A DNA stretch of 57,479 bases, taken from positions 1-57,479 of the forward strand of contig CBFICN010000003.1 in assembly GCA_965661045.1 (NCBI GenBank), given 5' to 3'. Positions 2,431-52,767 of this stretch are shown here, piece after piece. A program made the translations under genes and the position numbers. The stretch is from an uncultured Myxococcota bacterium. GTDB taxonomy: Bacteria > Myxococcota_A > UBA796. The first letter of the stretch is position 1. Each line of letters starts with the position of its first letter. The notes under the pieces were generated by a model, which had not been told where the DNA came from, did no database searches, and saw only the letters and a program-made list of their open reading frames with translations.

Positions 2431-3321
2431 ATGCCGATTTGGTTCTCGTTTTTGGTGCTTGGCTGTACTAGAGATGTTGTTGTTGGTGTCGAAGACTTAC
2501 CAGAGGGTGAATCATTTGTATTGAGTCTGGACGGTGTACGAATGGACCATCAAAGTGCAGGAATGTGGCGTGCATCGAGCGTTGATATGCGTGAACAGCA
2601 TACGTTGCAATTATGGTACGGAGAACGTGAGTGTACCTTGGACACTTCAACAGTTTCCGGTGAACTTGGTTTTGGAGACTGGAGTCACCAAACTGCTTGG
2701 GAATGTCCGGGCTTGTTGGGGTATGCGATGTATCCAGTCGATGATTTACTGGTCGGGCAGTCAGAGGTAACCGTTGGACTGTGGCAATTGCTTAAAGGTG
2801 AAGCGCAAGAGGATACGTGTGGTGCTCGTTGTCCCAAAAGCAACATCAATTGGCTACAGGCATTGGAGTTTTCGAATCAGATGAGCATCGCTGAGGGGCT
2901 TGAACAGTGCTATCAAAACAATCCAACTGGACAAGTGGATTTGAAGGAGGGCTGTACCGGGTATCGTCTTCCAACGGATGAAGAATGGAGTCGGTTGTCA
3001 TCCAAGGACAGTACACGGCCCTATGCAGATTCAGACAGTGCACCTTTGGTCGGGTGGGTCAGAGAGAATTCTGATCTACAACGCCACCCGGTCTGTGAGT
3101 TGCAACGCAATGGGTATGACCTGTGTGATACCACTGGCAACGTGTGGGAGTGGTGTTGGGACACCCCTGAGCGAACAGAACTGCGGCGTGTGCGTGGGGG
3201 TGGGTTTACATCGGCGCCTGATGTTGCCCGTTTGGACAATGCAGTAGACTTCCCAGCCCATTTGGGAGCCGAACACATCGGGTTTAGACTGGTACGCAAA
3301 GTACCGAATTCAAATCCGTAA
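2431..3321 (+). CDS. FGE-sulfatase (SUMF1) domain protein, probable lipoprotein
   Basis: 296 aa. N-terminus FSFLVLGC is lipobox-like. Motifs GYRLPTDEEWS, GNVWEWCWD, RVRGGGF, IGFRLVR are typical of the formylglycine-generating-enzyme fold. AAGGGAGA RBS upstream. Confidence 0.8.
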   Translation: MPIWFSFLVLGCTRDVVVGVEDLPEGESFVLSLDGVRMDHQSAGMWRASSVDMREQHTLQLWYGERECTLDTSTVSGELGFGDWSHQTAWECPGLLGYAMYPVDDLLVGQSEVTVGLWQLLKGEAQEDTCGARCPKSNINWLQALEFSNQMSIAEGLEQCYQNNPTGQVDLKEGCTGYRLPTDEEWSRLSSKDSTRPYADSDSAPLVGWVRENSDLQRHPVCELQRNGYDLCDTTGNVWEWCWDTPERTELRRVRGGGFTSAPDVARLDNAVDFPAHLGAEHIGFRLVRKVPNSNP

Positions 3322-3411: not shown

Positions 3412-4581
3412 ATGGAGAGTGAGATGACAAGGATGAACGTGGGGAAACTCAGATGGCTGGTGTTGCCAATACTGTTTGCGTGCACTGGTGGAGAAACCAA
3501 TCCAAATGTCATCACGAAATCCGACATTCAGACTGCCGTTCCCCAAAAAGACATTCAAACCATCTGTACGGCTTTGAGATCTCCAGACCCCGAACTGCAG
3601 CAGTTTGCTACTGAGCAACTTCGAATTTTTGACCCTGAGAAGATCAAAGAGTGCTTGAAAGAAGGGTTGGTGGACGCCGAAAGCAAAGCCTTTCGCATTC
3701 CAGTGTTGGAAGGGTTGAAAGGGGAAAAACGCAATGCGGTCGCCCGTGTGGCGGCTGAGTTGATTCAAGACACTGCTCTGACCAACCGAGAAGAAGCCAT
3801 TCACCATTTGGGAGGGGTTCCAGCACCGGCTGTCAATGCTGCATTGATGAAAATAGCGGAAAATACGTCTGATGACGCCAAAGTTCGCGCCGTAGCCGTT
3901 CGTTCCGTAGGTGGTTATACTGACAACTTCGACTCCACGGCGGCATTGTTTGAAGACGGAAATCCTGTGGTCAAAGCGGCGGTGGTTGAGATGCTTGGGT
4001 TGCACACTGGCGAAAAGGCGGCCAGACGACTCATCAAAGAAGCGTTGCCCCATGAAGACGAGAATGTACGTGCCGCAGCAATGAAGTCTTATCGAGCCCA
4101 TGCCAATGATCGTGCTGAAGAAGTCCTTTGTACTGCTATGATGGAGGATGTGTCTCCCATCGTTCGCAAAGCGGCGGTAGAAGCCTTGGAAAAGACGACA
4201 TCTGTGTCTGCTGTTCGTTGTTTGCGCAAACGTGCATTGACTTTGGAAGAAGACAGAGATGTTCGAGCTGCCATTTTGAACAGTTTAAAACTGGCCGAAG
4301 GCAATGCCGAACGTCCAGCCTTTACCGCAATGTGTGACGCGATTCCTTTCTGGTTGCGCAGTTATGTAACCGACAAATTACCAGAAGAAGACCCCGGTAC
4401 CGACATCGTGAAAATGCAGAATGATTATGACCACGAAAATTCTGAAGCCTGTTTTGCAAACGCCTACAAGCAAAAAGCCCAGTACTCTTGTCATGGACAC
4501 AAGTACATTGCATGGTTTTACAAGCAAATGATCAGCAATGAAAATTTGTATGTACCTGAGTGTGAAGAACCCGCTGAATGA
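3412..4581 (+). CDS. HEAT/PBS-lyase-like repeat protein, secreted or membrane anchored
   Basis: 389 aa. Hydrophobic N-terminus (LRWLVLPILFAC), then repeated helical units of the type D..VR..A...LG.. (DAKVRAVAVRSVG, NPVVKAAVVEMLG, NVRAAAMKS, SPIVRKAAVEALE, DRDVRAAILNSL). Confidence 0.65.
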   Translation: MESEMTRMNVGKLRWLVLPILFACTGGETNPNVITKSDIQTAVPQKDIQTICTALRSPDPELQQFATEQLRIFDPEKIKECLKEGLVDAESKAFRIPVLEGLKGEKRNAVARVAAELIQDTALTNREEAIHHLGGVPAPAVNAALMKIAENTSDDAKVRAVAVRSVGGYTDNFDSTAALFEDGNPVVKAAVVEMLGLHTGEKAARRLIKEALPHEDENVRAAAMKSYRAHANDRAEEVLCTAMMEDVSPIVRKAAVEALEKTTSVSAVRCLRKRALTLEEDRDVRAAILNSLKLAEGNAERPAFTAMCDAIPFWLRSYVTDKLPEEDPGTDIVKMQNDYDHENSEACFANAYKQKAQYSCHGHKYIAWFYKQMISNENLYVPECEEPAE

Positions 4582-5133: not shown

Positions 5134-6876
5134 ATGTCGTTTAGACAGGGTCGGTTCTCACTCCACAATCGTTGGGTGACCGGTTCTGTTGTTTTTGTGC
5201 TTCACACACTGTTTGTACTGTGGGGGGCAACCACCGGAATTCAAGCGTCTGATTCGTCTGAATTTGTGTTGTCAGCAGCCCAAAATGCTCGGATTCACCC
5301 ACCGGGCTATCCGTTGCTCTCGCTTTGGGTACAGTTGTTTTCAAACCTTGGTGACAATGTGGTTTGGAATACGACCGTTGCGATGGGGGTGTTGCATTCT
5401 CTTGCATTGGTGCTGCTGGTGGATTCGCTGTCTTTTCATCGAGGATCGGAGCACAACGAATCTGAGTCATTTCCCATGTTGCCCCTATTGATAGGGTCAT
5501 TGTTGACGTCACAGCCTTTGTGGATTCGATATTCCACAATCCCTGAAGCCTTTCCAGCGCTCACGCTTGTCTTTGCTGGCCTATATTGGTTGCTTCGTTG
5601 TGGCCGTTCGACTCATCGAACCGCTGCTTTGTTTGGCCTTGTGCTGGCTTTTGGAGTGGGGACGCATCATTTGTTTGTTTTTGCAGCACCGATGATTCTC
5701 CTGTTGATGTGGCGAATGCGGGCACAATGGTACACCTGGTTTGGCATTTCTTTGTTGGGGCTTTGTGCCTATGGACTGTTGCTGTTCTCCGATGAGAACG
5801 GCTGGTCTTGGGGGAGAGTTCAAGATGTCAATGATGTTGTGGCGATGTTCTTTCGCTTGGATTACGGAACGTTTCAAATTACCCATCGTACGGAGATGGG
5901 GACTTGGTGGGGAACACCGTTGGTGTATTTGAACACGTTGGTCCAAGAGTCCTACGGACTCTTTCTACTCGGTATTCTCGGTGCTGTACAGAGTATTCGA
6001 CAAGGGACCGGGTCCTCCAAGTTGGAAATGGGGAGTACACTGGCAGCGTGGTTCTTGTCTTCGGTGGTCGTGTTGGGACTCTTTGGTTTACCCACTGACG
6101 CTGCGAATCTATCCCACAGCAACCGATTCTTTGTTTCATCTATGGTTCTGTGGATGCCTTTCGTCCACAGAGGACTGTTCAACTTTTGTCTAAAAGTGCG
6201 AGATATCCATCGGCAAGGTGTGCAAATAAGTGTCCTGTGTGTGGTGATGCTGTTGATGATGACCAATTACCCTGTGGCTGGACGGTTTGATTCTAGAATG
6301 CAACGTTGGCTTGAACACTCTTGTTCGATCTTACCAGCAGGGTCTATGGTCTTTGTCGCTGGAGATGGGGCCGTGTTTGGCAGTGTAGTGGGTCAAGAAG
6401 TGTATGGCTTGTGTCTAGAGGTGCAGTTTGTATATCCCAGATTGTTGAGCTACTCTTGGTATCGAGAACGTTTGAGTACAGTGGGGTTGTCGGGCACAAC
6501 CATGCGTGAGATTTTGTCTCAGCATTCAGGGGCGGCGTTTACAGTGTTGGGATTGGTGGGAGAAGATCAAGAAAAGGGATTGCCGCCGTCGGTGCCTTTC
6601 GGAGGGTATTGGATGCAATTTATCCCTTCGAACCAAGACCTCCCAACACCTTTTGCAGTAGAAGAACACCTTGTCAATCAAGCAGCACAGATCGAGCAAG
6701 GTATTGAGCATTCATTGTTGCGTCATCAAAGTGCAGAAAATTGGCCCTTGGAGCAATGGGGACACAGTTGGTTGGCATTGGGTGCTGCTTACCGTAGCAT
6801 TGGAGAATTGGAACGCGCCAGCAAATGTGTTGAGTATGGTCGGCAGTGGTTGTCAGAAGATATTGAATCGGATTGA
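5134..6876 (+). CDS. Polytopic GT-C-type membrane protein, DUF2723/TMEM260-like putative protein O-mannosyltransferase
   Basis: 580 aa with many TM segments. N-terminal SDSSEFVLSAAQNARIHPPGYPLLSLW resembles the DUF2723 signature (HPPGYPL). Soluble C-terminal helical region. Confidence 0.6.
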   Translation: MSFRQGRFSLHNRWVTGSVVFVLHTLFVLWGATTGIQASDSSEFVLSAAQNARIHPPGYPLLSLWVQLFSNLGDNVVWNTTVAMGVLHSLALVLLVDSLSFHRGSEHNESESFPMLPLLIGSLLTSQPLWIRYSTIPEAFPALTLVFAGLYWLLRCGRSTHRTAALFGLVLAFGVGTHHLFVFAAPMILLLMWRMRAQWYTWFGISLLGLCAYGLLLFSDENGWSWGRVQDVNDVVAMFFRLDYGTFQITHRTEMGTWWGTPLVYLNTLVQESYGLFLLGILGAVQSIRQGTGSSKLEMGSTLAAWFLSSVVVLGLFGLPTDAANLSHSNRFFVSSMVLWMPFVHRGLFNFCLKVRDIHRQGVQISVLCVVMLLMMTNYPVAGRFDSRMQRWLEHSCSILPAGSMVFVAGDGAVFGSVVGQEVYGLCLEVQFVYPRLLSYSWYRERLSTVGLSGTTMREILSQHSGAAFTVLGLVGEDQEKGLPPSVPFGGYWMQFIPSNQDLPTPFAVEEHLVNQAAQIEQGIEHSLLRHQSAENWPLEQWGHSWLALGAAYRSIGELERASKCVEYGRQWLSEDIESD

Positions 6877-7783: not shown

Positions 7784-8323
7784 CTATTCCACCAATCCAG
7801 TGATGGCCTCTGTTAATTCTTCCATGTACACAGGATTGGAGAGGTCGTGTACGGTGAGGTTGTACACAAATCTGAGATTGCCTTCCATGTCGACGACATA
7901 GACATCTCGGTATTGCACATCCCACAAAGTCCAAGCATCCACTTCTTCGGTGTCTTGAAGCCACGGGATGTCTCTTCCCTCAGTGACCCTTTCATTGCCA
8001 CTTTCATAGCCGACACCGTTGACCCCCAAAATCTGTATTGGCAGTTCATCTTCGTTGAAGACGGTTTGCAGTGTATCCAATTGGCCAAACTGACCAGCAC
8101 AGTAGCCTCACGTTGAGTGCCCAAAATACCAGGCGGATATCTTTTCGGGACTGTCGTCTACAAACTGTGTGCTGTCAACCACAGTTTCGTAAAAGTCAGA
8201 GGTTGGATTGACATCAACCACTGAAAAAACTGGCAGCGTTTCTGAAATGTATTCTATGCCACTTGGCTGGCATCCAAAAAGCACAATTGGTAGGACAGGG
8301 GACCACATAGATATCTCCAACAC
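7784..8323 (-). CDS. TlpA/ResA-like thioredoxin-fold lipoprotein with in-frame TGA (candidate selenocysteine) in a U-G-Y-C redox motif
   Basis: ORFs 8108..8323 and 7784..8080 share a frame and are separated only by TGA at 8108..8110. Read-through gives MLEISMWSPVLPIVLFGC (lipobox) ...PEKISAWYFGHST-U-GYCAGQFGQLDTL...VYVVDMEGNLRFVY. This is the redoxin layout with the stop at the first Cys of CxxC. The alternative is a pseudogene or sequencing error. Confidence 0.6.
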
Positions 8324-17384: not shown

Positions 17385-19210
17385 AACCATCGCTACCATT
17401 CAACGCACCCAACTCCTACGCGCCGTTTATTTGCTGTGTATTCTCATCCTTGTTGATTGGTGGACTGCGGCTGGGACCCGTGTTGTGGAACCCCAGTGAC
17501 TATTTGATTGGTGGATGGGGGCATCCAGACAACATCGGCAATCACTGGTTGTTGGTGTGGGTGGCCGAAAGACTGTGGTCAGGGGAGTCATTGATTCACA
17601 ATGCTGAATATTATGTGCCGATTGGTGATCATCCTTGGTTGGCTGGGAATGGTACAGAAGGATTGTTGTATGCCCTGTTTCATCCTTGGTTGGGATGGCC
17701 GACGGCGGTGGTGCCACTGGTGTTGTTGTATTTTGTGGGAATGGGACTCGGAGGGTATGGCCTTGGGCGCGTGCTGTCATTGGGAAGGTGGGCTTCGTTG
17801 ATTCCGAGCATGGTCATTGTGTCTTCCGGATTTTGGACACGAGAGATCAACGCTGGACGATTTTCCCAACTGGATGGTGTGTGGCTTATTGCGTCTTTGG
17901 CTTTGTTTGTAGGACTGTTCACAGGAGAGCGTCGCAAAGGCTGGGCTACTTTGTGTGGTGTCACGGTTGGGTTGACTGGCATTTTTTATTGGTATTATGC
18001 CTATTTCTTTGTGTTGGCAGCACTGGTGTATTCGGGTGTGGCAGTTTTGTTGAAACCAGACACGATTTCCAAACCACGATTGCTCAACATTGGACTGGCG
18101 ATGCTGACTTCTTGGGTGGTGATCGCCCCTGTTGCTTGGGTGTACTGGCAACATTGGGGGTTGGTACCAGGGGTGGAGGAAGTCAAATTTCCATCCGCCG
18201 ATGCATTTTCCGACGCATTGACGTGGTCTGGTTCATGGCTTGTACCCTATGGACGAACAGCCGGTGCAGTACAGTCTATTCCCACTTTGGCACTGGCAAT
18301 TTTTGGGTGTGTGTCCGTAATTCGTCACCGAAATTCACCGACCACGCGCTTTGCTTTATTGAGTACGGTGTCCCTTTGTGGACTGTTTGGGTTATTGGCT
18401 TTTGGACCCAAGACGCCCCTCTTTGAATGGGTGTATGGCTGGTCGGTTCCTGTACGTCGGTTTTGGTGGCCCTCCCGTCATTTGTTGCTTTGGACTGTTG
18501 GGTGGGGTGTGCTGGCTGGTTTGGGTGGACGTGCGTTGCTTAGTACACTGTCGATGCGTTGGAGACCCCTGGCGGCAATTGTCTTGGCTTTGAGTGTCCC
18601 TGGTTCTCTTTGGGTACAGGGGGATCGACCTTTTCATGCCAACCACACACCCATTGAACATCCAGTGTCTGCCTATCAACCATTGACGACGTTGGAAGGG
18701 GAGGGGCTGTGGATGCACCCACTCAACCCCGCAGTTGCCAATACGCAGTTGCCGTTGTTGTTGCAACTGACCCACGGTAAGAAGTTGTTGAACGGTCACG
18801 GTATGTGGGTGGATAGGGTGCGACCGACCGAGTGGGATGAGTTTGTGGATGGCAATGCACTGTTGAAGGGCTTGTCCGAGTACGAGTTGGGCGCCCAAAA
18901 TCCGACGTTGAATATTTCTGCGTCTGACATCGATCAACTTGTGCAAACTGAACTGGAGTTGATCGTCTTGGATTCCAAACTCATACCGAGGCCACTGATG
19001 GGGTTGGTACCCAACTTAGCCAAGATTTACGGTCAATTGTTTGGAGAACCTGTATTGAGGGGAGAGCAATTGCGCGTGTGGTCCGTCGCCAATTGGACTG
19101 GAGTTACAGTGATTGCCTTGCCGAGTTGGACGTTGCCCAGTGGCATGGATTTGGGGAATGGGCGTCATCGGATGCCCGATCCCGTAGTTGGTCGTGGGGT
19201 GACACCATGA
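17375..19210 (+). CDS. Large polytopic membrane protein, GT-C-like (function unknown)
   Basis: 611 aa. About 12 TM segments followed by a roughly 200-aa soluble domain. Overlaps the upstream gene by 10 nt and the downstream gene by ATGA. Confidence 0.55.
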   Translation: MSIEPSLPFNAPNSYAPFICCVFSSLLIGGLRLGPVLWNPSDYLIGGWGHPDNIGNHWLLVWVAERLWSGESLIHNAEYYVPIGDHPWLAGNGTEGLLYALFHPWLGWPTAVVPLVLLYFVGMGLGGYGLGRVLSLGRWASLIPSMVIVSSGFWTREINAGRFSQLDGVWLIASLALFVGLFTGERRKGWATLCGVTVGLTGIFYWYYAYFFVLAALVYSGVAVLLKPDTISKPRLLNIGLAMLTSWVVIAPVAWVYWQHWGLVPGVEEVKFPSADAFSDALTWSGSWLVPYGRTAGAVQSIPTLALAIFGCVSVIRHRNSPTTRFALLSTVSLCGLFGLLAFGPKTPLFEWVYGWSVPVRRFWWPSRHLLLWTVGWGVLAGLGGRALLSTLSMRWRPLAAIVLALSVPGSLWVQGDRPFHANHTPIEHPVSAYQPLTTLEGEGLWMHPLNPAVANTQLPLLLQLTHGKKLLNGHGMWVDRVRPTEWDEFVDGNALLKGLSEYELGAQNPTLNISASDIDQLVQTELELIVLDSKLIPRPLMGLVPNLAKIYGQLFGEPVLRGEQLRVWSVANWTGVTVIALPSWTLPSGMDLGNGRHRMPDPVVGRGVTP

Positions 19211-21848: not shown

Positions 21849-23867
21849 TTACCGCGACAATATGTGTGTCTGTTGGTTGTTTCGTGCTCTTCTTCGGTAA
21901 AATGAGTCCATGTACAAGATGTGTGGAAAAGTGATACAGGACCCCGCAATGATGATCCATCCTAAATGAAAGGGCTGTAGAGAGAGTGTCAGTACAAAGA
22001 TTGCACAAAAGAGAAATGCCCCAATCGTCAACGGCAATGCTTCTTGCCACATGGATCGATCAGATAGGGTGATGGCTTCTTTGAGGTGGGTCCACGCTTC
22101 CAAACTGTGTTGCCCAATAAAGTATAGACCGAATGCCATAGGGAGTGGCAACCATGCCGATGCCCACAAAGAGATCGTGGACAAGAACAACTGCACTGAA
22201 CGTGTTTTGAATAGCAAACCCACTTGTAGGAATGCCATGGACAACAACCAGCCAATGGAATTCTGCAGTGGTAGGCTAGAGTGTACCGACAGCAGTTCAA
22301 CAACAATCTGACTGTCTTCAGGATGAGACAGGATGATCCATCCCAACACCGATAGTCCCCATAGAAAAATAGACACTGTATGCTCCGGCAGTTTCCAATG
22401 CTGAAAGTCCGTTTGGCCAAAATGCCAAGCTGAGGTGAGTACAAATACCCCCAAACCAACAGTTGGACTGAGTAGCCACAGTACTGCCATACTTGCAATT
22501 AAACCCCAATAGCGCATGTGAAATGACCCATTCCATCTGGAGACACCTTGTTCGCCAACGGTATGATAATCCAAAGCTCCATGGGGTATGCCAATCGCCA
22601 GCATACCAAGTCCCAACAACACCCAGCCAGCATAGCCAGTATAAATGGGAAACAGTTGGTATAGGACGATCAATACACTCGTTGTCATCAGCAATAGGAT
22701 TGAGGGAGTAAAAAGACGTCTTTGAATTAGAGCCTGTAAAAAAGGTGTCCAAGGCAATCCAGCAAAAATTTCGATCTCTTCCCAAATACTTGTCTGTTGT
22801 CGAAGAAATTTGAGAACTCTGGCAAGCTGTTGGCTTCGAAAAAGTTCTTTAAAGATGTCCTTGCCCAAGTGTGGTTTTGTCATCAAAATGTGAATGAGTA
22901 GATCGTCGTAAAATGTGAATCGTGGCTGGGGGGTAATTGTGGGTTGTCGATCTAGATCCATACAAATTTCTGTTGCGTGTTCGTACATGGTTTCAAACGC
23001 GTAGCCCGTACTGGGTTTGACGGCACCAGCGCGAGATCCAATAGACAGACAATTGGGTAGAGAGGATGGAGTACTCGAATGGATTGACATTGAGATGATG
23101 CCCCGTTCTGTGTTCAGAACCGTAAATGAACCCCATTTTTTCTGTATGTAGTGTTCGAGGTGTTGCTCAGCTCTTTTGGTCTCGATGGGAGCAATTCCAA
23201 ATCGAGTGCACTCAACCAAAGCACGCGTTGAACTTTCCGGAAGAATGTACATAAATTGTGTGGCATCATCCTGTGGAATATCAAAATCCATCAGGGTCAA
23301 AGTGTCCTCTTGGATGTTGGGTTCTGAAAGTTCGATAAAGAATCCAACGAAGGATTGAAGCAACCCTCTTGAAGAATTTGTTGAAGAGGCAAGGGGACGG
23401 CCATCAAAAACTTGTTGGCTGATGATGGTTGTATTGGCAGTATCAATGCGCAAAGACTTGGAGCCTTCTATTGCATCAATCTTTTCTACACTGTCTCGAA
23501 GGATTTGAATGCCATGTTGTCTACACAATCGAGTTGTGGAATCAAACAGTTTTTGACTCTCAATTTGGTAATATTGATTGGGGGCAATGCATTGTTTTGG
23601 AAGTGGAGGTACTTCGGCAAATTTCCAGTGCCGTTGTATGACATCTTGATGCTCCAAGACAATGGGATCGGTCGGAGATGCCCAAAAACACAATGTTTTG
23701 GGTGTGTGTTTGTGTGTTGGCTCCACAATTAATATAGAGTACTGGCTCAAGATCCCACGTCGTTCGAACGCTCGTAGAATCAAGCAAGCTGCGATGCCCA
23801 ATCCACAAAATACAAAATCGTACTCCGGAAGCAAGTCCTGATGAGATGTGGCCTTCGAGGTTGACAT
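21849..23867 (-). CDS. Fusion protein: lycopene beta-cyclase (CrtY/CrtL-type, N-terminal) + beta-carotene 15,15'-dioxygenase (Brp/Blh-type, C-terminal)
   Basis: N-terminal part (about 22712..23867): FAD fold YDFVFCGLGIAAC, FMYILPESSTRALVECTRF, GSRAGAVKPSTGYAF. C-terminal part (about 21852..22711): 7-TM Blh with GIPHGALDY, SAWHFGQTDF, YFIGQHSLEAW. One uninterrupted frame. I prefer the ATG 23867 start because the GTG at 23909 lies inside the upstream terminator stem. Confidence 0.85.
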   Translation of the reverse strand: MSTSKATSHQDLLPEYDFVFCGLGIAACLILRAFERRGILSQYSILIVEPTHKHTPKTLCFWASPTDPIVLEHQDVIQRHWKFAEVPPLPKQCIAPNQYYQIESQKLFDSTTRLCRQHGIQILRDSVEKIDAIEGSKSLRIDTANTTIISQQVFDGRPLASSTNSSRGLLQSFVGFFIELSEPNIQEDTLTLMDFDIPQDDATQFMYILPESSTRALVECTRFGIAPIETKRAEQHLEHYIQKKWGSFTVLNTERGIISMSIHSSTPSSLPNCLSIGSRAGAVKPSTGYAFETMYEHATEICMDLDRQPTITPQPRFTFYDDLLIHILMTKPHLGKDIFKELFRSQQLARVLKFLRQQTSIWEEIEIFAGLPWTPFLQALIQRRLFTPSILLLMTTSVLIVLYQLFPIYTGYAGWVLLGLGMLAIGIPHGALDYHTVGEQGVSRWNGSFHMRYWGLIASMAVLWLLSPTVGLGVFVLTSAWHFGQTDFQHWKLPEHTVSIFLWGLSVLGWIILSHPEDSQIVVELLSVHSSLPLQNSIGWLLSMAFLQVGLLFKTRSVQLFLSTISLWASAWLPLPMAFGLYFIGQHSLEAWTHLKEAITLSDRSMWQEALPLTIGAFLFCAIFVLTLSLQPFHLGWIIIAGSCITFPHILYMDSFYRRRARNNQQTHILSR

Positions 23868-23892
23868 GGAAGTCCATTGCTGAGTGACGTTG

Positions 23893-23927
23893 AGAAAAAA
23901 GAAAACCACCCCAAATGGAGTGGTTTT
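23893..23927 (-). terminator. Rho-independent terminator between the rhodopsin gene and the crtY-blh fusion
   Basis: Minus-strand RNA AAAACCACUCC-AUUU-GGGGUGGUUUU, an 11-bp stem including one G.U with a 4-nt loop, followed by CUUUUUUCU. It starts 18 nt after the rhodopsin TAA. Confidence 0.8.
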
Positions 23928-23945
23928 GTGAAGAACGAGTTCAGA

Positions 23946-24680
23946 TTATGCTGCTTGTTGTGCGCGAATCTTTTCACTCTCTGCTTTGGCAACGCTGTAT
24001 ACTACGAGACCGAATCCAATCTTGTTGATTGCGTCTGCAATGTTGTATACGATGTTCATTTCAAACATACCGGCCATCCAGTTGTCTGGCATAGTCATGT
24101 AACCAATCGGGTAGATAGACCATCCCAATGTGATGAAGATACCCAACAAGAACATGGCTTGCTTCAACTCAGGAGAGTCACTGGACTGAGAAAGTTTGCG
24201 TACGTCGCCAGCGAATACTTCGTATACGATGTAGGCGTAACCGATTGTTGAAATGAATCCCCAAAGGACAGAGCCACCACCGAGGATTGCAGCTTCACCA
24301 ATGTATCCGGTGACCAACATCCAAACAGAAGCAACGATCAACTTGAAGAGTGTGCTGCCTTTCGCGCCGAATGGTTTTGTGAGAAGATAGAATTCAACAC
24401 ACATCAATGGTACAGTCAAAATCCAGTCGATGTAACGGAATGCTGTGGGAGAAGTTCCAGTTTGAATCCAGAAGTCACGCATGTAGTAGTAGTGCACGCA
24501 TGCAATTCCAGTAATCAACGCAGATACAGTCAATGACAGACGCCACTTACCTTCTACAGAGTTGCGCTCCAGCAAAAAGAATGCTGTTGCAGCCATCATG
24601 GCCATTGTGCCGATGAAAAATGTGAAACCAGTGTAATCTTCTGTTCCAAGATTGCTGGCAGCCAGTAATAAGTTGTTCAT
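23946..24680 (-). CDS. Proteorhodopsin/xanthorhodopsin-type light-driven proton pump
   Basis: 244 aa, 7 TM. RYIDWILTVPLMCVEF gives the D-T-E motif (codons 24426..24428, 24414..24416, 24393..24395). His in CVHYYYM. Schiff-base Lys in YNIADAINKIGFG (24021..24023). GGAG RBS 7 nt upstream. Confidence 0.95.
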   Translation of the reverse strand: MNNLLLAASNLGTEDYTGFTFFIGTMAMMAATAFFLLERNSVEGKWRLSLTVSALITGIACVHYYYMRDFWIQTGTSPTAFRYIDWILTVPLMCVEFYLLTKPFGAKGSTLFKLIVASVWMLVTGYIGEAAILGGGSVLWGFISTIGYAYIVYEVFAGDVRKLSQSSDSPELKQAMFLLGIFITLGWSIYPIGYMTMPDNWMAGMFEMNIVYNIADAINKIGFGLVVYSVAKAESEKIRAQQAA

Positions 24681-33586: not shown

Positions 33587-33627
33587 CGTGTTGGAGTTTG
33601 CATCAAGAAGTCGTTATCTTGAAAGGT

Positions 33628-34500
33628 ATGAAAAGGTATTTTGTCCCATCTCCTGTTGCAAATGGAGTTGCCCTATTGGTGGTTGGCGCGTACGCTCTTG
33701 CTTGTACAGAAACAAGAACGCTGGACGATGCGACCGAGTGGCAACAGATTGAACCAGACGATTTGAAACCTCTGTTGGACCCTGTGGCGATTGCCTTGCC
33801 TGAACCTTCCTTCGCGATGGGAAATGATCTAGACTTGGATGAAAGGCCAAAACATCAAGTGGCATTGACCAGTTCTTTTGTTGCGATGCGCAGCGAGGTG
33901 ACGCAGCAGCTCTATGAGCAGATCATGGAAGTGAACCCTTCCTTCTTTCAGCGCTGTGGTGACACCTGTCCAGTGGAAAAAGTACGTTGGATTGAAATCA
34001 TTGAGTTTGCCAATCGGGTCAACCTGATCCTGGGACTGCAACAGTGCTATGAAATTCAAGAGCAAGGCCATGTCGATTGGATAGATGGATATGACTGTAA
34101 CGGTTGGCGTTTGCCCACCGAAGCAGAGTGGGAGTGGATGGCAGGCAGTGGTCGTCCAAAGGGGCACATCCTCAATAAGTACGCTTGGTTTTCAGACAAT
34201 GCCAATACACAAACGCATCCCGTATGTTCTAGAACAGCGGACCTCAATGGCTTGTGCGATGTGTTGGGCAACGTACAAGAGTGGGTGTGGGATGTAGCGG
34301 ATGACTATCCGTCTTCTCATCCAGAAAGAGCCCGTACAAACCCGATTGGGCCAACTGAAGGCAAACACCATATCTTCAGAGGTGGCGCGTGGAATCGCTA
34401 TGGGGAAAACCTGACGGAGACCATTCGGAAAGATGCAGCTTATTTATTTCGGAACAATGATTTGGGCTTTCGGTTGGTTCGGACAACCTCTATAGACTAG
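33628..34500 (+). CDS. FGE-sulfatase (SUMF1) domain lipoprotein, paralog of 2431..3321
   Basis: ATG 33628. Lipobox-like VGAYALAC. GWRLPTEAEWEW, GNVQEWVWD, FRGGAW, LGFRLVR. Confidence 0.8.
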   Translation: MKRYFVPSPVANGVALLVVGAYALACTETRTLDDATEWQQIEPDDLKPLLDPVAIALPEPSFAMGNDLDLDERPKHQVALTSSFVAMRSEVTQQLYEQIMEVNPSFFQRCGDTCPVEKVRWIEIIEFANRVNLILGLQQCYEIQEQGHVDWIDGYDCNGWRLPTEAEWEWMAGSGRPKGHILNKYAWFSDNANTQTHPVCSRTADLNGLCDVLGNVQEWVWDVADDYPSSHPERARTNPIGPTEGKHHIFRGGAWNRYGENLTETIRKDAAYLFRNNDLGFRLVRTTSID

Positions 34501-40856: not shown

Positions 40857-43800
40857 TTATTGATCCTCTTGAGCACGTTCGAGCGCTTCAATGATGGCGG
40901 GTCGCAACTGCTTAGCCTCAATAATTGCGTCGAGTGAACCAACATCAATTGCCCGTTGAACGCTGTGGATATTGTCAAACTCAGTTGCGATGATGCCACG
41001 TTTCTCCAACGTCAATGTAGTGAGCATTTTGTTGCGTTCTTCTAGCAAAAATGGTTTTTCTGCATTTCGGGCTTCTTGGATTCGCTTGTCCAGTTCGATC
41101 AAGCGTTCATCTTCATTGACCAGCGCTTTGACTTTTCGAGGGAATACGACCGCAGCAGCCGGTGCGCCTCCAATAACAGAGGCAAAGGAACCTTCGACTG
41201 CAATGGCCGTGATATTGGGGTTGAGTGCTTTGGAAAACACCACATAGGCCCCACCGTGATAGCGCCCAATCACGACGAAGACGATCGGTGATGCACAGTT
41301 GACCACTGCGCGTCCAATTTCCGCGCCGTACTCTAGTTGCAATCTGCGCAACGACTCGGGTGAACCATCAAACCCACTGAGATTGGCCAGTACCACGATC
41401 GGCGTTTGTCCACTGGCTGCATTGATGGCGCGCGCAATCTTTTTGGAACTTTGCGGAAATAGGGTACCCCCAGTCCAGGTGTCGGGGCCATCCAAGGGCA
41501 CTCGACCACGCCGCAAGATCGGTTGGGATTCAATTCCAATGACTGTGCTGGAAATCCCTCCAATGTGCGCAGACCACACAATGGCCGATTCTCCTTGGTG
41601 CAGTTGAGCAAAGCGTTCAAGATACTGACTGTCCTGATCAATCAGTGCTTGCATCACTTGACGAATGGCGAACGGCTTTTTTCGTTCTGGGTTGTGCTCT
41701 TTCGAAAAGATATCCCCAATCCGTTTGAAGTAGGGGTGATTCTCATCGGTATAGGGATGTAAGCACACATTTCTATTGGGAGAGTCATTGGTCAACTGTT
41801 TGGGAGATCGACCGGTTTGTGGGTCACAGAAGGTGTGTCGATAAATCTCAAACAAGAGGGCATAGGCCTCTCCCAAATCAGCAACTCGGTATTGGGATTG
41901 TCCGTTTGGTCCCATGATGCGCTCAACACCACCGATGCCACGCTCGTCTTCAGCAGAAACGCCCCCTGAAAAGTCCAGTGCCTTCTTCCCTGTGAGAACC
42001 ATGGCGGCTTGGGTTGTCATAATCAACACCCCTTTGGTGTGCATGAGCATCGTGGCTTCTGCATTCCAGTACGATTGCGCACCCACGTTGATTCCGTGTA
42101 CAATGACGTGAATGACCCCACCTGATTGGGTAAATTGGATGATTCGCTCCAGAACTCGGGCAGTCCAGTCAAGGTTTTCCGTACCGGAGTTCATGGATAT
42201 CATGGCCCCAGCCGAAACAGGGACCCACTCAACAGGAATGCTCAGTTCTAAAGCCAAATCAAGCGCCGCCATAATGCGAGAACACTCTTTTTCTGCCAGT
42301 GACCCCATCGCTTTCGTTGAGTCGGATCCAATCCAAATGCGTTGCATTCCTTGTGGAAATTTACTCGTGGTGTTGTTGATAATTCCTACAACGACACCAC
42401 AATTGTTTTGACCAAAGGGTCTCAACACTGGAACAAACTGACCACTGGAATTGAAGTCGTATTCTTGAAAACGACCGTTTCGCATGTCTGGATGTGGAAT
42501 GTTCAATGCGGTGGGAGACCCTTCAAGCATTCGAATGATTTCATATGGGTAGACGTGTCCAAACTTCTGGGCCCGTACGGCCTTCATATCATAGGTGGAC
42601 ATCGGTGGGATGGCCAGATGGTTGTCGAGCCAGTTGAATTCAAGCTGGTTGTTTCCTGACCGTCGGAGCTGAATGGTCGACCATTGGAATCGACTCGCCC
42701 GGGTTCGTAGGTGCAACTGAACTTCTCTAAGGTTTAAGCCACGCGTGTAGGGCTCTAACTGCTTGGCAAACAGTTGCAGCTCGGCTTCGTTGGTGTCCAA
42801 CTGGGGGTGGATGTGAAAGTAGAGCCAGTTCCACTGCAATCGTGATCGCTTTGTGCGTTGAGACTGTGTACTTCGGATCGCGCGAATGGCTTCAAAAAAT
42901 ACCCGTTCAAAGTGACGCAAGGGAAATGCTGCCCCTTCCGTGGAAGAGCCAAACACCTCGGCCAGCACAAAGATCCGTTCGTCTTTGGCATTGCTGTGGG
43001 CTTGTCCCAAAAACGCATAGATGTGTTCTTGTGAATAAATGCGAGACAGTTTGAACTCTTTGAGCCTTTCTAGTTTCAGTCGACTGGCAACTTGAGGGTG
43101 GATGTCGTTGAGCAAGGTTTGGAAGCGCCATTGTCCCTTTTGATAGACAAAGGTTCGATGGTGCGCCAGTTCGTTGTTCATCCAGGTCAGCGTGATGCGT
43201 TTGGGTTGAATCGGGAGTGTTGTCAGCAGGATGGGGGCTTGTTCAAGCCAAGACTCATCCAGTCCTTGGGGCAGTACAAATTCCAAATAGGTTGCCGGAT
43301 TGATCATCAGTTGCAAAATCTGTAGGATATTGTCTTTTGTGGTGTCGGGTTTGAACAGGATGGACAGGATGCGATCGGACTGGTTGATTTTCCCTTCGAC
43401 CAGAGCGTGCCCCTCTACCTCGGCATCATTTGTCCAAGTGTAGGTCTCCCCAATGTAAAAACGACGCGTCAGCGCTTCAATGATTCGGTGCGGTTGAGCG
43501 CCACTCTGCATTTGATACAGCGTTTGTTGGAGGGCTTGTGGTGATCGGCCAAGTTTCCGCATAACGGTGCGAACCACTTTGCTGTCGGCGTCGTAAGATT
43601 CCATACTCGAAAACATTTCCTGAACGGCTGCGGTTAGGGCTTCCATTTGTCGTCTGTTTTCACCGTGGGCAAAGAACAGGTGGTGGGCATGAATCGCATT
43701 GTCCTGTACATAAGGGTGGTCGGTGTGGGCCGCTTGACCTGTTTTTTCAAGGATGTCTTCAAGTTCTGCCGGTGGAGTCCAGTTGGTTTGGTGTAAGCGG

Positions 43801-46391
43801 ATTACAATGCGCAGCAGTCCAGACGCAACGTGGTGGCGCCAAGTGCTGTTGTCGTTTCCAAGGGCCAATCTAAATAGGGCTTCTTTTAGGTGGGTGTCAT
43901 TCGTTAAGGAGTCGATGTGGTACCAGTGCAAGGCTCTGTTCAACATTTCTTCAACGCATTCCAAGATATTGTCGTCGTGGTGTTGTCGACAGAAGTCATA
44001 AAAGGCTGCATTGGCTGGGATTGTGGTGGTGCTGTCCAGATCCAATAGCAGTGTCCGATCGAGCAATTGTGTAGCGTCCGAGAACATGGATAGGCATTCA
44101 ATAAATCGGTTCCAAATGTTGGGGTGCGCGCAGTCCGATACGGTTGCGGAACTGTCCAATATTTGATCCATCATGTCGCTCATGGTTGGCGTAATGTCAA
44201 AGCCAAGCATGGATGCTCGAAACAAAGCGTGCAACTCTTCCAACACTGTTTCTTGTACTGCGCCTTCGAGCGTATTCAAGCGACTGAGTTCAAGCCGACC
44301 TTCACTCCACAATTCTGCAAATAAAATGCGATTGGGACTTTCAAACCCTTGAGACTCCACACTTTGGTCACTGGATTCATCTTCCAAATCCAAGACGAGT
44401 AAGGCGTCCCCAATCAAGACCTGTTGATTGACTTGACATAGAATCTCTTGTACTGTTCCCGCTTCCGAAGCAAAGACGCCCAGTTCCATCTTCATCGCTT
44501 CAAGTGTACACAAACGATCACCGACGTTGACGGTGTCCCCAGGCGAGACGGAAACACTGACGATGACAGCGGGTGTTGGGGAGCGCACGACACCACCCGA
44601 AGAACGTTCAATGGTGTGGCTGTATCCATCCAATTCAACTGTAATACCAGCACTTCCATAGGAGTAGAGGATTTTATGCCGCTGTTCTCCTACCCACATT
44701 TCAGCAATGTGTGGCGAGATGGTTTTCAACTGAACGCGGTGCAGTTGTTGAGACACTTCCACCACAAAATCATCCATGTCCCAGGCGGCAACCGTCATTG
44801 AGTATTCCATTCCACGGAGCTTCAATTCTACCTCAAATCCTTCGTTGCTGGGGAACTGAACGGGGATACCATCTTGACACTGTTGAAAGAAGCGATCCAT
44901 GTTGACGTGGGTATTTCGCTTGTATTCTAATATTGCTGCTGCGAGAAGTGCTTGCTTTTCTGCGCCGACTCGAACCACAGAACCGGCTGCCATGGCTCGG
45001 TCTAGCCAGTCTGTAGCCGCCGTTGCGTTGACGAATTCTTCGTGTCGCAAAATGTCCAACAGGAAGGCTTGATTGGTTGCGCCATCTTCTACTGCGGCGT
45101 CGAGTTCCAAACAGGCTCTGCGTGCACGGGCAATGCACAATTTTCGCGTCGGTGCCCAAATGATGATTTTGGCAATCATGGAGTCGAAGTGTTCTGAGAT
45201 CGTGGATCCTTCCGTGATACCGCTGTCTACTCGAACACCTGGTCCAGCGGGCGCTCTAAAGATGGCGACGCGTCCTGGAGCTGGACGAAAATCTTGCTCA
45301 GGATCTTCGGCATTGACGCGCAACTCAATGGCGTGTCCATGCACCAATTTGGTGGGGGGAGACCATGTCCAACCTAGGGCTATGGATATTTGAGCTTGTA
45401 CCAAATCGGCACCCGTAATCGCCTCTGTGATGGTGTGCTCCACTTGCAGCCGTGAGTTCACTTCCAAAAATGTGGTGGTTCCACTATTGGGCTCATATAG
45501 AAATTCTGCTGTGGCGACGCCCTTGTATCCACACAGTCTTGCCAATTTCTCCGATGAACGCATCAGCAGTTCACCGACTTCGCTGGGAAGGATTGGGGAA
45601 GGGGCTTCTTCAATCACTTTTTGATTGCGTCGCTGAATGGAGCAGTCTCGGATACCAACGGCGTGTGCAGATGTGTCTGTACATACCAGTTGCACTTCGA
45701 TGTGTCTCGCTTGAGATACACATCGCTCCAGCAGAATTCCCCCTTGACCAAAGAATTTCTCGACTTCGCTGTGCACCGTTTGGACGGTTTCTGCCAACTG
45801 TTCTGGGGCGTTCACTTTGCGAATACCGCGACCACCACCACCTGCTGAGGCTTTGACCATCAGTGGATAGCCAATTCGATTTCCATGCTCAATGAGTTCC
45901 GCATCATTCCAATCGCTTTTGTATTCAGCCCAAGGAGCCAACGGAACCCCAGCTTTCTCCGCCATGTATTTTGCCGCGATTTTGTCTCCCAATTGACTCA
46001 TCGCCTTGGAGGATGGACCCAAGAATACAATATTGTTGGATTCAAGTTTTTCGACGAACAAGGGGTCTTCAGATACAAATCCCCATCCTGGCCAAACTGC
46101 ATCACAGTGATTGGCTTTGAGCAACGCCACAATCCAAGCGTGGTCTAAGTACGCATTGACAGTTTTTCCAGTGGGCAATGTACGCATGATACCACCGATG
46201 CAAATAGCTTCGTCGGCTTGGCGAACGAACGGCATGTGTTCATCTGGCTCTGTATAGAACGCCACCCCTTTGATCGAGGTTCCATGGATTAAGTTGAATT
46301 CCTCGAGGGCTCGAAGAAATCGAACCGCGGGCTCTCCACGATTGATGATGGCAACTTTGGAAAATAACTGTGTCTGCATTGGACTCCCCAT
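40857..46391 (-). CDS. Single-chain multidomain biotin-dependent carboxylase, eukaryote-type acetyl-CoA carboxylase architecture (BC - BCCP - central region - CT)
   Basis: 1844 aa. Biotin carboxylase (VAIINRGEPAVRF, MVKASAGGGGRGIRKV, EEAPSP, EVNSRLQVEHT), TDWLD linker, biotinylation motif CTLEAMKMEL (Lys codon 44490..44492). Roughly 480-aa middle region. Carboxyltransferase (VVVGIINNTTSKFPQG, GARIG-like region, LANLSGFDGSPESL, GRYHGGAYVVF). Confidence 0.9.
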   Translation of the reverse strand: MGSPMQTQLFSKVAIINRGEPAVRFLRALEEFNLIHGTSIKGVAFYTEPDEHMPFVRQADEAICIGGIMRTLPTGKTVNAYLDHAWIVALLKANHCDAVWPGWGFVSEDPLFVEKLESNNIVFLGPSSKAMSQLGDKIAAKYMAEKAGVPLAPWAEYKSDWNDAELIEHGNRIGYPLMVKASAGGGGRGIRKVNAPEQLAETVQTVHSEVEKFFGQGGILLERCVSQARHIEVQLVCTDTSAHAVGIRDCSIQRRNQKVIEEAPSPILPSEVGELLMRSSEKLARLCGYKGVATAEFLYEPNSGTTTFLEVNSRLQVEHTITEAITGADLVQAQISIALGWTWSPPTKLVHGHAIELRVNAEDPEQDFRPAPGRVAIFRAPAGPGVRVDSGITEGSTISEHFDSMIAKIIIWAPTRKLCIARARRACLELDAAVEDGATNQAFLLDILRHEEFVNATAATDWLDRAMAAGSVVRVGAEKQALLAAAILEYKRNTHVNMDRFFQQCQDGIPVQFPSNEGFEVELKLRGMEYSMTVAAWDMDDFVVEVSQQLHRVQLKTISPHIAEMWVGEQRHKILYSYGSAGITVELDGYSHTIERSSGGVVRSPTPAVIVSVSVSPGDTVNVGDRLCTLEAMKMELGVFASEAGTVQEILCQVNQQVLIGDALLVLDLEDESSDQSVESQGFESPNRILFAELWSEGRLELSRLNTLEGAVQETVLEELHALFRASMLGFDITPTMSDMMDQILDSSATVSDCAHPNIWNRFIECLSMFSDATQLLDRTLLLDLDSTTTIPANAAFYDFCRQHHDDNILECVEEMLNRALHWYHIDSLTNDTHLKEALFRLALGNDNSTWRHHVASGLLRIVIRLHQTNWTPPAELEDILEKTGQAAHTDHPYVQDNAIHAHHLFFAHGENRRQMEALTAAVQEMFSSMESYDADSKVVRTVMRKLGRSPQALQQTLYQMQSGAQPHRIIEALTRRFYIGETYTWTNDAEVEGHALVEGKINQSDRILSILFKPDTTKDNILQILQLMINPATYLEFVLPQGLDESWLEQAPILLTTLPIQPKRITLTWMNNELAHHRTFVYQKGQWRFQTLLNDIHPQVASRLKLERLKEFKLSRIYSQEHIYAFLGQAHSNAKDERIFVLAEVFGSSTEGAAFPLRHFERVFFEAIRAIRSTQSQRTKRSRLQWNWLYFHIHPQLDTNEAELQLFAKQLEPYTRGLNLREVQLHLRTRASRFQWSTIQLRRSGNNQLEFNWLDNHLAIPPMSTYDMKAVRAQKFGHVYPYEIIRMLEGSPTALNIPHPDMRNGRFQEYDFNSSGQFVPVLRPFGQNNCGVVVGIINNTTSKFPQGMQRIWIGSDSTKAMGSLAEKECSRIMAALDLALELSIPVEWVPVSAGAMISMNSGTENLDWTARVLERIIQFTQSGGVIHVIVHGINVGAQSYWNAEATMLMHTKGVLIMTTQAAMVLTGKKALDFSGGVSAEDERGIGGVERIMGPNGQSQYRVADLGEAYALLFEIYRHTFCDPQTGRSPKQLTNDSPNRNVCLHPYTDENHPYFKRIGDIFSKEHNPERKKPFAIRQVMQALIDQDSQYLERFAQLHQGESAIVWSAHIGGISSTVIGIESQPILRRGRVPLDGPDTWTGGTLFPQSSKKIARAINAASGQTPIVVLANLSGFDGSPESLRRLQLEYGAEIGRAVVNCASPIVFVVIGRYHGGAYVVFSKALNPNITAIAVEGSFASVIGGAPAAAVVFPRKVKALVNEDERLIELDKRIQEARNAEKPFLLEERNKMLTTLTLEKRGIIATEFDNIHSVQRAIDVGSLDAIIEAKQLRPAIIEALERAQEDQ

Positions 46392-51541: not shown

Positions 51542-52767
51542 ATATTTTCCTTGACCCAAGCAAGGGCACTTTCTTTGCTGTGTAATCTTTCGTGTAATTG
51601 TTCGGTTCGCACTTTGTCTATCCAAACACCAATGTCCGGACCTTTCAATCCAAGTGCAATCAAGTCTTTTCCAGAAATCAAACGTGGCAGTGGGGTGGTC
51701 AGTCCTCGGCTCAAAGCACTTTGTCTATTTTGTGCAGCGATTTCACCTTCAGTCCCTTCGACGATGGAGGCTACATCACACAGGAATTGGATGTCAAAAA
51801 TATCACTGCAGATATTTTGGGTGATGGTGCTGTGATCGGAGGTGAGCAAAGGGGTGGCAAGGTTGGTTCCCAGAATGGCCTCTTTGACTGGAAAGCCCAT
51901 GAAGCGTTCGATGCTCAGCGCGTCCAACAAAGCGAGTGTTTCGTCTTTTGAAAGAGGATGGGTCAACAGCGCTAAAAACAGTCCCATGCTGCGTCCAGGG
52001 TTGTTGGGGGCTCGAAGTCTGGCGCCCCGTCTGCAAGATTCAACGATGCACTCTTTATCTGCTTTGCTTAGCGAAGCGTATTGTGGAAAATAGTTGGGCA
52101 TTGCGTTGAGTTCAAACAGCCATTCAACTGCCACATGTGGTTCTGGACTTTTCATCCAAGCTTTTTGCAATTCAACCCACACGCGCTCTTTGGGAAGGCG
52201 TACAAAGTCTGGGTGTTGGACCAATGTATGACACAAGGTTTGGAGACTTGCATCCACAGTGCACGAAAGTCGACCGGCAAATTGACAGACTCGAAACACC
52301 CGCAACAAGTCTTGGGCAAAATATTTCACGTCTGTGGCCCGCAACACCTTGTTTTCTAAGTCGGTCAACCCATTGAAGGGGTCGACGAGTTGTTGCGTCT
52401 CTATGTGAATCAACATTGAATTGATGGTGAGGTCTCTTCTTCGACAGGCTTCCTCCACTCCCACAAAGGGCGTCGGTTCATCGAGCAGTTTTGGAAGTGC
52501 AACATCGACTTCGAGTTCATCACCGTGTTGAGGCAAGAGTTTCCACACCCCAAAACTTTTTCCGACCTTTCGAAAGGGGGGGAACCGATAGAGAATGTCT
52601 ACAAGTTGCTCCGTCGTCAACCCGTGGACTTCTACGTCAATGTCCTTGGAGTCAATTCCCAGTAGGTGGTCTCGAACACTTCCACCTGTCACATACACAT
52701 CTCCGCCGGCTTTGCTGACGGCCTTGGAGAAGTGCAGAACTTTGTCTGGCAGAGAAATTTCTGTCAT
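51529..52767 (-). CDS. cca: CCA-adding enzyme (tRNA nucleotidyltransferase, class II)
   Basis: 412 aa. VYVTGGSVRDHLLGIDSKDIDVEV, RRDLTINSM, C-terminal HD-like region. Confidence 0.85.
   Translation of the reverse strand: MTEISLPDKVLHFSKAVSKAGGDVYVTGGSVRDHLLGIDSKDIDVEVHGLTTEQLVDILYRFPPFRKVGKSFGVWKLLPQHGDELEVDVALPKLLDEPTPFVGVEEACRRRDLTINSMLIHIETQQLVDPFNGLTDLENKVLRATDVKYFAQDLLRVFRVCQFAGRLSCTVDASLQTLCHTLVQHPDFVRLPKERVWVELQKAWMKSPEPHVAVEWLFELNAMPNYFPQYASLSKADKECIVESCRRGARLRAPNNPGRSMGLFLALLTHPLSKDETLALLDALSIERFMGFPVKEAILGTNLATPLLTSDHSTITQNICSDIFDIQFLCDVASIVEGTEGEIAAQNRQSALSRGLTTPLPRLISGKDLIALGLKGPDIGVWIDKVRTEQLHERLHSKESALAWVKENICSP

Follow-up and report, generated by a model that had tools for sequence, protein, structure and literature searches.

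Thioredoxin-fold selenoproteins in which selenocysteine (Sec, U) takes the place of the leading Cys in a CxxC-type motif have been on record since 2005-2008, TlpA-like and redoxin-like members from marine metagenomes among them (PMC13188914). We describe here a gene of this type on the minus strand of a 57,479-nucleotide stretch from an uncultured Myxococcota bacterium (contig CBFICN010000003.1, positions 1 to 57,479, assembly GCA_965661045.1; hereafter the window). Positions 7784..8308 can with good confidence be read as one gene encoding a 174-residue selenoprotein of the curated NCBIfam family NF053656 (redoxin_TUGYCR, 'TUGYCR motif thioredoxin fold (seleno)protein'), and the in-frame TGA that interrupts it is very likely a real Sec codon in a small exported thioredoxin-fold redox protein. 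The protein shares with the catalogued marine UxxC selenoproteins the position of Sec, the TlpA/redoxin-like thioredoxin fold and a marine bacterial origin, and differs from them in that it has no match at E<=1 to PF08534 or PF00578 and is described by a separate NCBIfam model. Gene type, recoding mechanism and family assignment are already known and established; because NCBIfam curates the family with its selenoprotein status and the exact motif, the finding is correct but ordinary. A literature search found no paper describing or naming NF053656, and the family is also not among the entries in the table of a 2026 selenoproteome review (PMC13188914).

The first-pass annotation had noted two minus-strand open reading frames (ORFs), 8108..8323 and 7784..8080, that lie in one frame and are separated by a TGA and nine sense codons. 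Translation bears this out: TGA 8110..8108 is followed by GGC TAC TGT GCT GGT CAG TTT GGC CAA, and in the frame running from ATG 8308 to TAG 7784 it is the sole interruption. The whole segment 7784..8323 (minus strand) translates to 179 residues plus a stop, beginning VLEISMWSPVLPIVLFGCQ, with PIVLFGC near the N-terminus. Across the TGA it reads ISAWYFGHST, the stop codon and GYCAGQFGQLDTL, giving the motif HST-U-GYC-AGQFG; the read-through of ISAWYFGHST and TGA continues as GYCAGQFGQLDTLQ and ends in GLVE and the terminal stop. The 179-residue length proposed earlier is correct for the uninterrupted frame and is too long for the product, since translation almost certainly starts at ATG 8308..8306, as judged from the sequence, and yields 174 residues. 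A Shine-Dalgarno-like GGAG (8315..8318, minus strand), read from the sequence, lies 6 nt upstream of this ATG, and GGAGA precedes the ATG in the two closest relatives as well. The closest relative has GTA in place of the upstream GTG (8323), and initiation at that GTG would add only LEIS. The coding sequence (CDS) is therefore given as 7784..8308 (minus strand; stop TAG 7786..7784, Sec at residue 67), on the basis of translation, the NF053656 match, synteny and selection. In a scan of the whole window for in-frame TGA codons associated with a Cys motif, 8108..8110 was the only case in a real coding frame.

Searched with Cys substituted at the stop, the read-through protein matches NF053656 with 169.8 bits (E 3.2e-50; domain alone, 170.4 bits) against a curated cut-off of 100 bits, and the alignment spans positions 2-143 of the 146 in the model. 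All 34 of the 34 aligned relatives tested also match. The window protein thus covers nearly the whole model of a family whose name already embraces selenoproteins and their Cys homologues. It carries T-U-G-Y-C-A at the TUGYCR motif and agrees at five of the six positions; the last residue is Ala instead of Arg, and that codon sits in the 5' arm of the hairpin described below, whose stem in the window falls short of the family median. Within the family, the x and R positions of the motif are variable. The Sec67 codon (UGA, 8108..8110, minus strand) occupies the first position of U-G-Y-C, and Cys70 (UGU, 8099..8101, minus strand), predicted to be the resolving Cys of the U-x-x-C pair, falls in an invariant column (C52 of the family alignment, A3).

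Related loci were collected by scanning one genome per species, which returned 80 loci, mainly from metagenome-assembled genomes (MAGs) of Myxococcota and Planctomycetota (Pirellulales) with a few Verrucomicrobiales, and including the cultured Plesiocystis pacifica SIR-1, which has a TGA member, and one Nannocystaceae isolate, ST9, which has one too. One locus holds two copies, so the window gene and its 81 relatives give 82 aligned positions. The codon aligned with the window TGA is TGA at 71 of these, TGC at five and TGT at four; one is ambiguous and one was not parsed by the pattern. Neither TAA nor TAG occurs at this codon among the 82 positions. The expectation that Cys or Sec should align with the TGA in homologues thus holds, with TGA at 71 positions and a Cys codon at nine. 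The closest relative, from an uncultured Myxococcota MAG (CBFIFY01), is 83% identical and the next 69% identical; in both, synteny with the window is complete for more than 10 kb, and the gene is colinear. Against the closest relative, the ratio of nonsynonymous to synonymous change (dN/dS) is 0.13 before and 0.07 after the retained TGA, at a proportion of synonymous differences (pS) of ~0.57. Purifying selection on both sides of the TGA indicates that both halves are translated in one frame.

Copy number and record titles vary among these loci. One locus (L005) has a tandem pair of family paralogues ~0.9 kb apart, each with TGA; in one MAG three TGA copies lie on separate contigs (L010, L028 and L041), and another has a TGA copy together with a Cys copy bearing a C-P-L-C motif (L011 and L057). 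Several records (L003, L010, L015, L019, L022, L033 and others) bear the title 'uncultured Enterobacteriaceae', 'Enterobacterales', 'Rickettsiales' or 'Nealsonbacteria'; by sequence they group with Myxococcota/Planctomycetota members, so these titles look like unreliable automatic taxonomy.

A search of a protein collection gave 38 matches, most of them fragments of ~98 aa beginning with the first Met or Leu downstream of the motif, as would be expected from gene callers that stop at the UGA. Six full-length matches (P0001-P0006) show Trp at the Sec site and were gene-called with code 4, in which UGA is Trp, on short contigs; in the DNA of one of them (P0005; L081 656..1180) the Trp site is an in-frame stop under table 11. 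Two of the 38 are true Cys forms, and in one of these, P0015, the codon is TGC. Judged from these codons, the Trp entries and the 98-aa fragments are a systematic misannotation of the NF053656 family.

The RNA element that accompanies the UGA was resolved by comparison across the family. A bacterial selenocysteine insertion sequence (bSECIS) is described as a hairpin whose loop spans 3-9 nt and whose stem has 4-16 bp, with a G within the first two loop positions and 16-37 nt between UGA and loop (PMC13188914). In the family the UGA is followed by 10 nt and a 6-bp stem (NNNNCC/GGNNNN) around the loop AGUUY, encoded in the codons x-x-Q-F-G-x after the resolving Cys. In an ungapped alignment of 69 distinct sequences, pairing was found in 85.5% of cells against 69.5% in shuffles, the covariation score was 0.438 against 0.152 (neither value was reached in any of 500 shuffles), and 67 cells had changed on both sides of the stem against 20.5. 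Compensatory changes occur in many sequences at four of the seven stem pairs tested, and sliding the 3' partner by 1-3 columns lowers pairing to 24-53%. The inner five pairs also emerge from an independent RNAalifold prediction. The arm pairs seen include GUAGCC/GGCUAC, GUGCCC/GGGCAC, GCGCCC/GGGCGC, GUAUCC/GGAUAC and GAAGCC/GGCUUC, so that the amino acids flanking Q-F-G change together and the stem is kept. The hairpin is linked to the UGA: the 71 TGA forms have stems of 4-7 bp (median 6) with a median of -9.1 kcal/mol, and the nine Cys forms have stems of 0-3 bp with a median local minimum free energy (MFE) of -1.3. A hairpin conserved at orthologous loci, as foreseen in the first-pass annotation, is therefore present in the TGA relatives. 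The Cys form P0015 (L082 2062..2098) reads AGC AGC CAG UUC GGC UAC, the family hairpin with one C-A mismatch and 4 bp left, and looks like the remnant of a recent Sec-to-Cys conversion; in more divergent Cys forms the hairpin is wholly lost.

In the window the element lies at 8082..8096 (minus strand), with the 5' arm UGGUC (8096..8092), the loop AGUUU (8091..8087) and the 3' arm GGCCA (8086..8082), within the codons A-G-Q-F-G-Q. Like the bSECIS consensus (bSECISearch model; E. coli fdhF type), it is a hairpin just downstream of the UGA within the CDS, and it agrees with all four geometric features of that consensus: the loop has 5 nt, the stem of 5 bp lies in the range of 4-7 bp seen in the TGA forms, G and then U stand at loop positions 2-3, and 16 nt separate UGA and loop. 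Unlike the consensus, its spacing is at the allowed minimum, the hairpin is very small, and neither a lower stem nor a bulged U was found in it. Two other pairings had been proposed in the first-pass annotation. The hand-folded CAGU/ACUG stem with a 16-nt loop at about 8068..8094 was rejected as the SECIS, as it shows no compensatory changes and pairs no better than shuffles; the conserved hairpin is instead the one at 8082..8096. A perfect 7-bp hairpin does exist at 8047..8063 (minus strand; GUCUUCA ACG AAGAU), inside the CDS and 45 nt after the UGA, and was judged to lie outside the SECIS: its sequence is not kept in the closest relative, and it is probably incidental.

The structure of the Cys homologue P0015, which is 44% identical to the window protein, was modelled with AlphaFold2 in place of the window protein itself (pLDDT 81, pTM 0.74) and compared with the PDB using Foldseek (570 matches at E<=0.001). 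Ranking highest are a Bacteroides protein disulfide isomerase (2ls5) and a Geobacter thioredoxin-like protein (3kcm), together with Bacillus subtilis ResA (1st9, TMt up to 0.80), DsbE (3gl3), CcmG, the pneumococcal lipoprotein Etrx2 and TlpA; E values for the ResA, DsbE, 3kcm, CcmG, Etrx2 and TlpA matches range from 1e-9 to 1e-7. ScoI/SCO1 and the peroxiredoxins AhpE and Bcp rank lower. In the P0015 model helix 1 starts with the C-x-x-C and a Pro loop precedes strand 3, the layout of a thioredoxin fold, with the conserved Pro just before strand 114-116. In the family alignment the two Cys columns and the P-W-L-Q columns are invariant, and the most conserved protein motif, G-R-D-I-P-W-L-Q-D (7952..7978, minus strand in the window), has invariant R, P, W, L and Q columns; Pro115 probably corresponds to the cis-Pro loop of the thioredoxin fold. 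The TlpA/ResA/redoxin layout suggested by the first-pass annotation is thus supported by the model at the family level, through the matches of P0015 to ResA, DsbE, CcmG and TlpA.

The ResA, DsbE (CcmG), TlpA and Etrx oxidoreductases are accordingly the closest structural comparison. They are the best matches of the modelled Cys homologue (TMt 0.7-0.8) and share with it the redox motif at the start of helix 1 and the conserved Pro before strand 3; they are also held outside the cytoplasm by a membrane or lipid anchor, as is predicted for the window protein, and Etrx2 is itself a lipoprotein. The window protein differs from them in sequence (16-25% identity), in having HST-U-GYC in place of W-C-x-x-C, and in the replacement of Cys by Sec. 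Unlike ResA/DsbE/TlpA-type systems, no linked ccm, ccdA or dsbD gene was found in the window or among the neighbours at the 80 loci.

A lipobox, L-F-G-C, is formed by residues 10-13 (8270..8281, minus strand) and follows a hydrophobic stretch, in agreement with the consensus [LVI][ASTVIF][GAS]C; Cys13 is the putative lipidation site, and the product is therefore probably exported and lipid-anchored. Across the family, 25 of 80 sequences have a lipobox-like Cys 42-67 aa ahead of the Sec/Cys site, and one of these is probably a chance match. Other members carry dockerin or PEP-CTERM tails, which together with the lipobox suggest an extracytoplasmic location.

These features suggest how the gene would be expressed and how its product would act. 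A ribosome reaching UGA 8110..8108 would meet a small hairpin beginning 11 nt downstream, with the loop AGUUU, G at its second position, beginning 16 nt after the UGA. SelB-GTP-Sec-tRNA(Sec) is expected to bind this hairpin, so that Sec would be inserted instead of termination. The product, with its short hydrophobic leader ending in the lipobox Cys13, would probably be exported and lipid-anchored outside the cytoplasm, where the Sec67-Gly-Tyr-Cys70 centre would cycle between selenol/thiol and selenenylsulfide, giving the protein the activity of a ResA/DsbE/CcmG/TlpA-type thiol-disulfide oxidoreductase. From the gene and its relatives we infer Sec insertion, SelB binding, export with lipidation, the redox direction and the substrates.

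Several results weigh against this interpretation of the window gene. The hairpin is among the weakest in the family, with 5 bp including one U-G and -5.7 to -6.1 kcal/mol, and it fails the bSECIS stability threshold (MFE <= -7.5 kcal/mol) with its -5.7 kcal/mol; the closest relative reaches -9.8 kcal/mol because its Gln codon is CAG, against CAA in the window. Folding of the single sequence over 74 and 35 nt after the UGA gave z scores of +0.22 and -0.34, no better than shuffles; the MFE structure is a non-conserved alternative fold, and only in that fold does the 35-nt segment reach -8.5 kcal/mol. Single-sequence folds are thus uninformative here, and only comparative analysis resolved the SECIS element. 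A search of the whole window against Rfam at gathering thresholds gave no match. Pfam gave none for the window protein at E<=1, and a profile of 34 family members gave marginal DsbE/ResA matches among PDB sequences (E ~0.2), with the CxxC aligned. The leader, MWSPVLPIVLFG-C, contains no Lys or Arg and has its Cys at residue 13, a non-canonical arrangement when compared with a typical lipoprotein leader, which has a basic N-region and Cys at about residue 15-35. Because the leader is short and lacks a basic residue, lipidation at Cys13 is put forward only as a prediction, and of the lipoprotein signal PIVLFGC claimed earlier the lipobox stands and the basic N-region is lacking.

The surroundings of the gene also count on this side. 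None of the long ORFs of the window encodes selA, selB or selD, no tRNA of any kind, including tRNA-Sec, lies in the window, and no tRNA-Sec was found in the 80 related loci. No neighbouring gene is conserved across the 80 loci, where clustering recovers nothing but the gene and antisense ORF artefacts, and this gives no hint of a substrate or redox partner. Plesiocystis pacifica is treated as having a conserved selenoprotein-type fdhA operon (PMC4807772); with this operon and a TGA member of the family in the same organism, the Sec trait is plausible in the lineage.

If the TGA were a true stop, the locus would be a pseudogene or two small genes, one for a 66-aa lipopeptide and one for a 98-aa protein starting at TTG 8080. 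Gene callers do split the family in this way, so that most database matches are ~98-aa C-terminal fragments, and the weak window hairpin and the failure to find Sec machinery in the window agree with it. Retention of TGA at 71 aligned positions over several phyla, its replacement by Cys codons at nine, and purifying selection on both halves in one frame despite a pS of ~0.57 argue the other way; the redox motif and the thioredoxin fold also span the TGA, and the fragments begin at any Met or Leu after the motif, with no conserved start. We consider termination at this codon very improbable. An assembly or sequencing error concealing TGC or TGT is the faintest of the possibilities: it would take a single base, and Cys forms do occur in the family, but the two closest syntenic relatives, from independent assemblies, have TGA, as do 68 more members, and the TGA forms, the window among them, carry a linked hairpin that the Cys forms do not. 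Decoding of the UGA as something other than Sec, by reassignment to Trp or Gly (codes 4/25) or by near-cognate Trp or Cys read-through, would explain the six database homologues recorded with W at the site, but those calls were made with code 4 on short contigs, and under table 11 the codon is a stop. Stops of the 45 long ORFs in the window are TAA in 23, TGA in 13 and TAG in nine, and coding sequence under table 11 takes up 93% of the window. TGA thus terminates 13 of the 45 and the code is standard, in line with the first-pass annotation, which had held reassignment unlikely and pointed to TGA as a genuine stop at 4579..4581, 19208..19210 and 53975..53977; all three are TGA and all terminate long ORFs. 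The site moreover alternates only with Cys, at the nucleophilic position of a CxxC, and is followed by a covarying hairpin with bSECIS geometry, which together leave non-Sec decoding exceedingly improbable.

A further alternative accepts the selenoprotein and assigns it a different chemistry, that of a peroxiredoxin-like peroxidase or a Sco-like copper-handling surface protein. The relatives have weak Pfam matches to AhpC-TSA (24 of 34, best 5.9e-11), SCO1-SenC (20 of 34, best 1.9e-4) and Redoxin (18 of 34, best 6.8e-8), and the Foldseek results also include ScoI/SCO1, AhpE and Bcp. The YFGH(A/S)T-U context is presumably similar to that of Sco proteins, FG(F/Y)T-x-C, and we count this in favour of the alternative. 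The motif itself is U-x-x-C, of the thioredoxin/TlpA type, whereas peroxiredoxins have T-x-x-C and Sco proteins C-x-x-x-C, and the best structural matches are ResA, DsbE and CcmG; we regard a different chemistry as unlikely, while giving it some weight. A broader proposal along these lines would make NF053656 a clade of selenoenzymes anchored at the surface of marine Myxococcota and Planctomycetota, with a chemistry beyond generic disulfide exchange (Sco-like copper handling or extracytoplasmic peroxide reduction), the window hairpin having decayed to 5 bp. On this proposal, which we think has a small chance of being right, the 5-bp hairpin would make Sec insertion inefficient or dependent on the selenium supply and, as the minimal SECIS lies in the codons right after the redox motif, RNA pairing would dictate the amino acids that follow the active site. 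Sec at the first position of a thioredoxin-fold CxxC, the central claim of the first-pass annotation, remains the reading to which the NF053656 match, the alternation of Sec and Cys, selection, the UGA-linked hairpin, the fold and the use of TGA as a stop elsewhere in the window all point.

The value of the gene lies mainly in annotation, as standard callers split it and its relatives are stored as 98-aa fragments or with a false Trp. It adds one more selenoprotein for a marine, rhodopsin-bearing Myxococcota-like genome and implies a Sec-decoding trait in the organism. The description of the family SECIS (6 bp, AGUUY loop, 16 nt after the UGA, absent in Cys forms) is usable for automatic annotation and opens no new question.

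The genes next to the selenoprotein gene in the window encode an SseB-like protein, a hypothetical protein and a TMEM260-like protein, and suggest no partner or substrate. Farther along the window is a microbial rhodopsin of 244 aa (23946..24680, minus strand; PF01036, E 2.7e-41), adjoined by a 686-aa fusion of a lycopene cyclase-like domain and a Brp/Blh beta-carotene 15,15'-dioxygenase (21849..23909, minus strand; TIGR03753, E 3.7e-35); together, 21849..24680 (minus strand) holds a retinal-synthesis and rhodopsin pair, in what seems to be a marine Myxococcota genome. Four genes have architectures that look eukaryote-like: a single-chain 1844-aa acetyl-CoA carboxylase with biotin carboxylase, BCCP, ACC_central and carboxyltransferase domains (40857..46391, minus strand), a bifunctional 6-phosphofructo-2-kinase/histidine-phosphatase enzyme (52764..53975, minus strand), a Suv3-type DEXQ helicase (53975..56392, minus strand) and a TMEM260-like O-mannosyltransferase (5134..6876, plus strand). 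Two proteins with FGE-sulfatase (SUMF1-like) domains are encoded on the plus strand, at 2431..3321 and 33598..34500.

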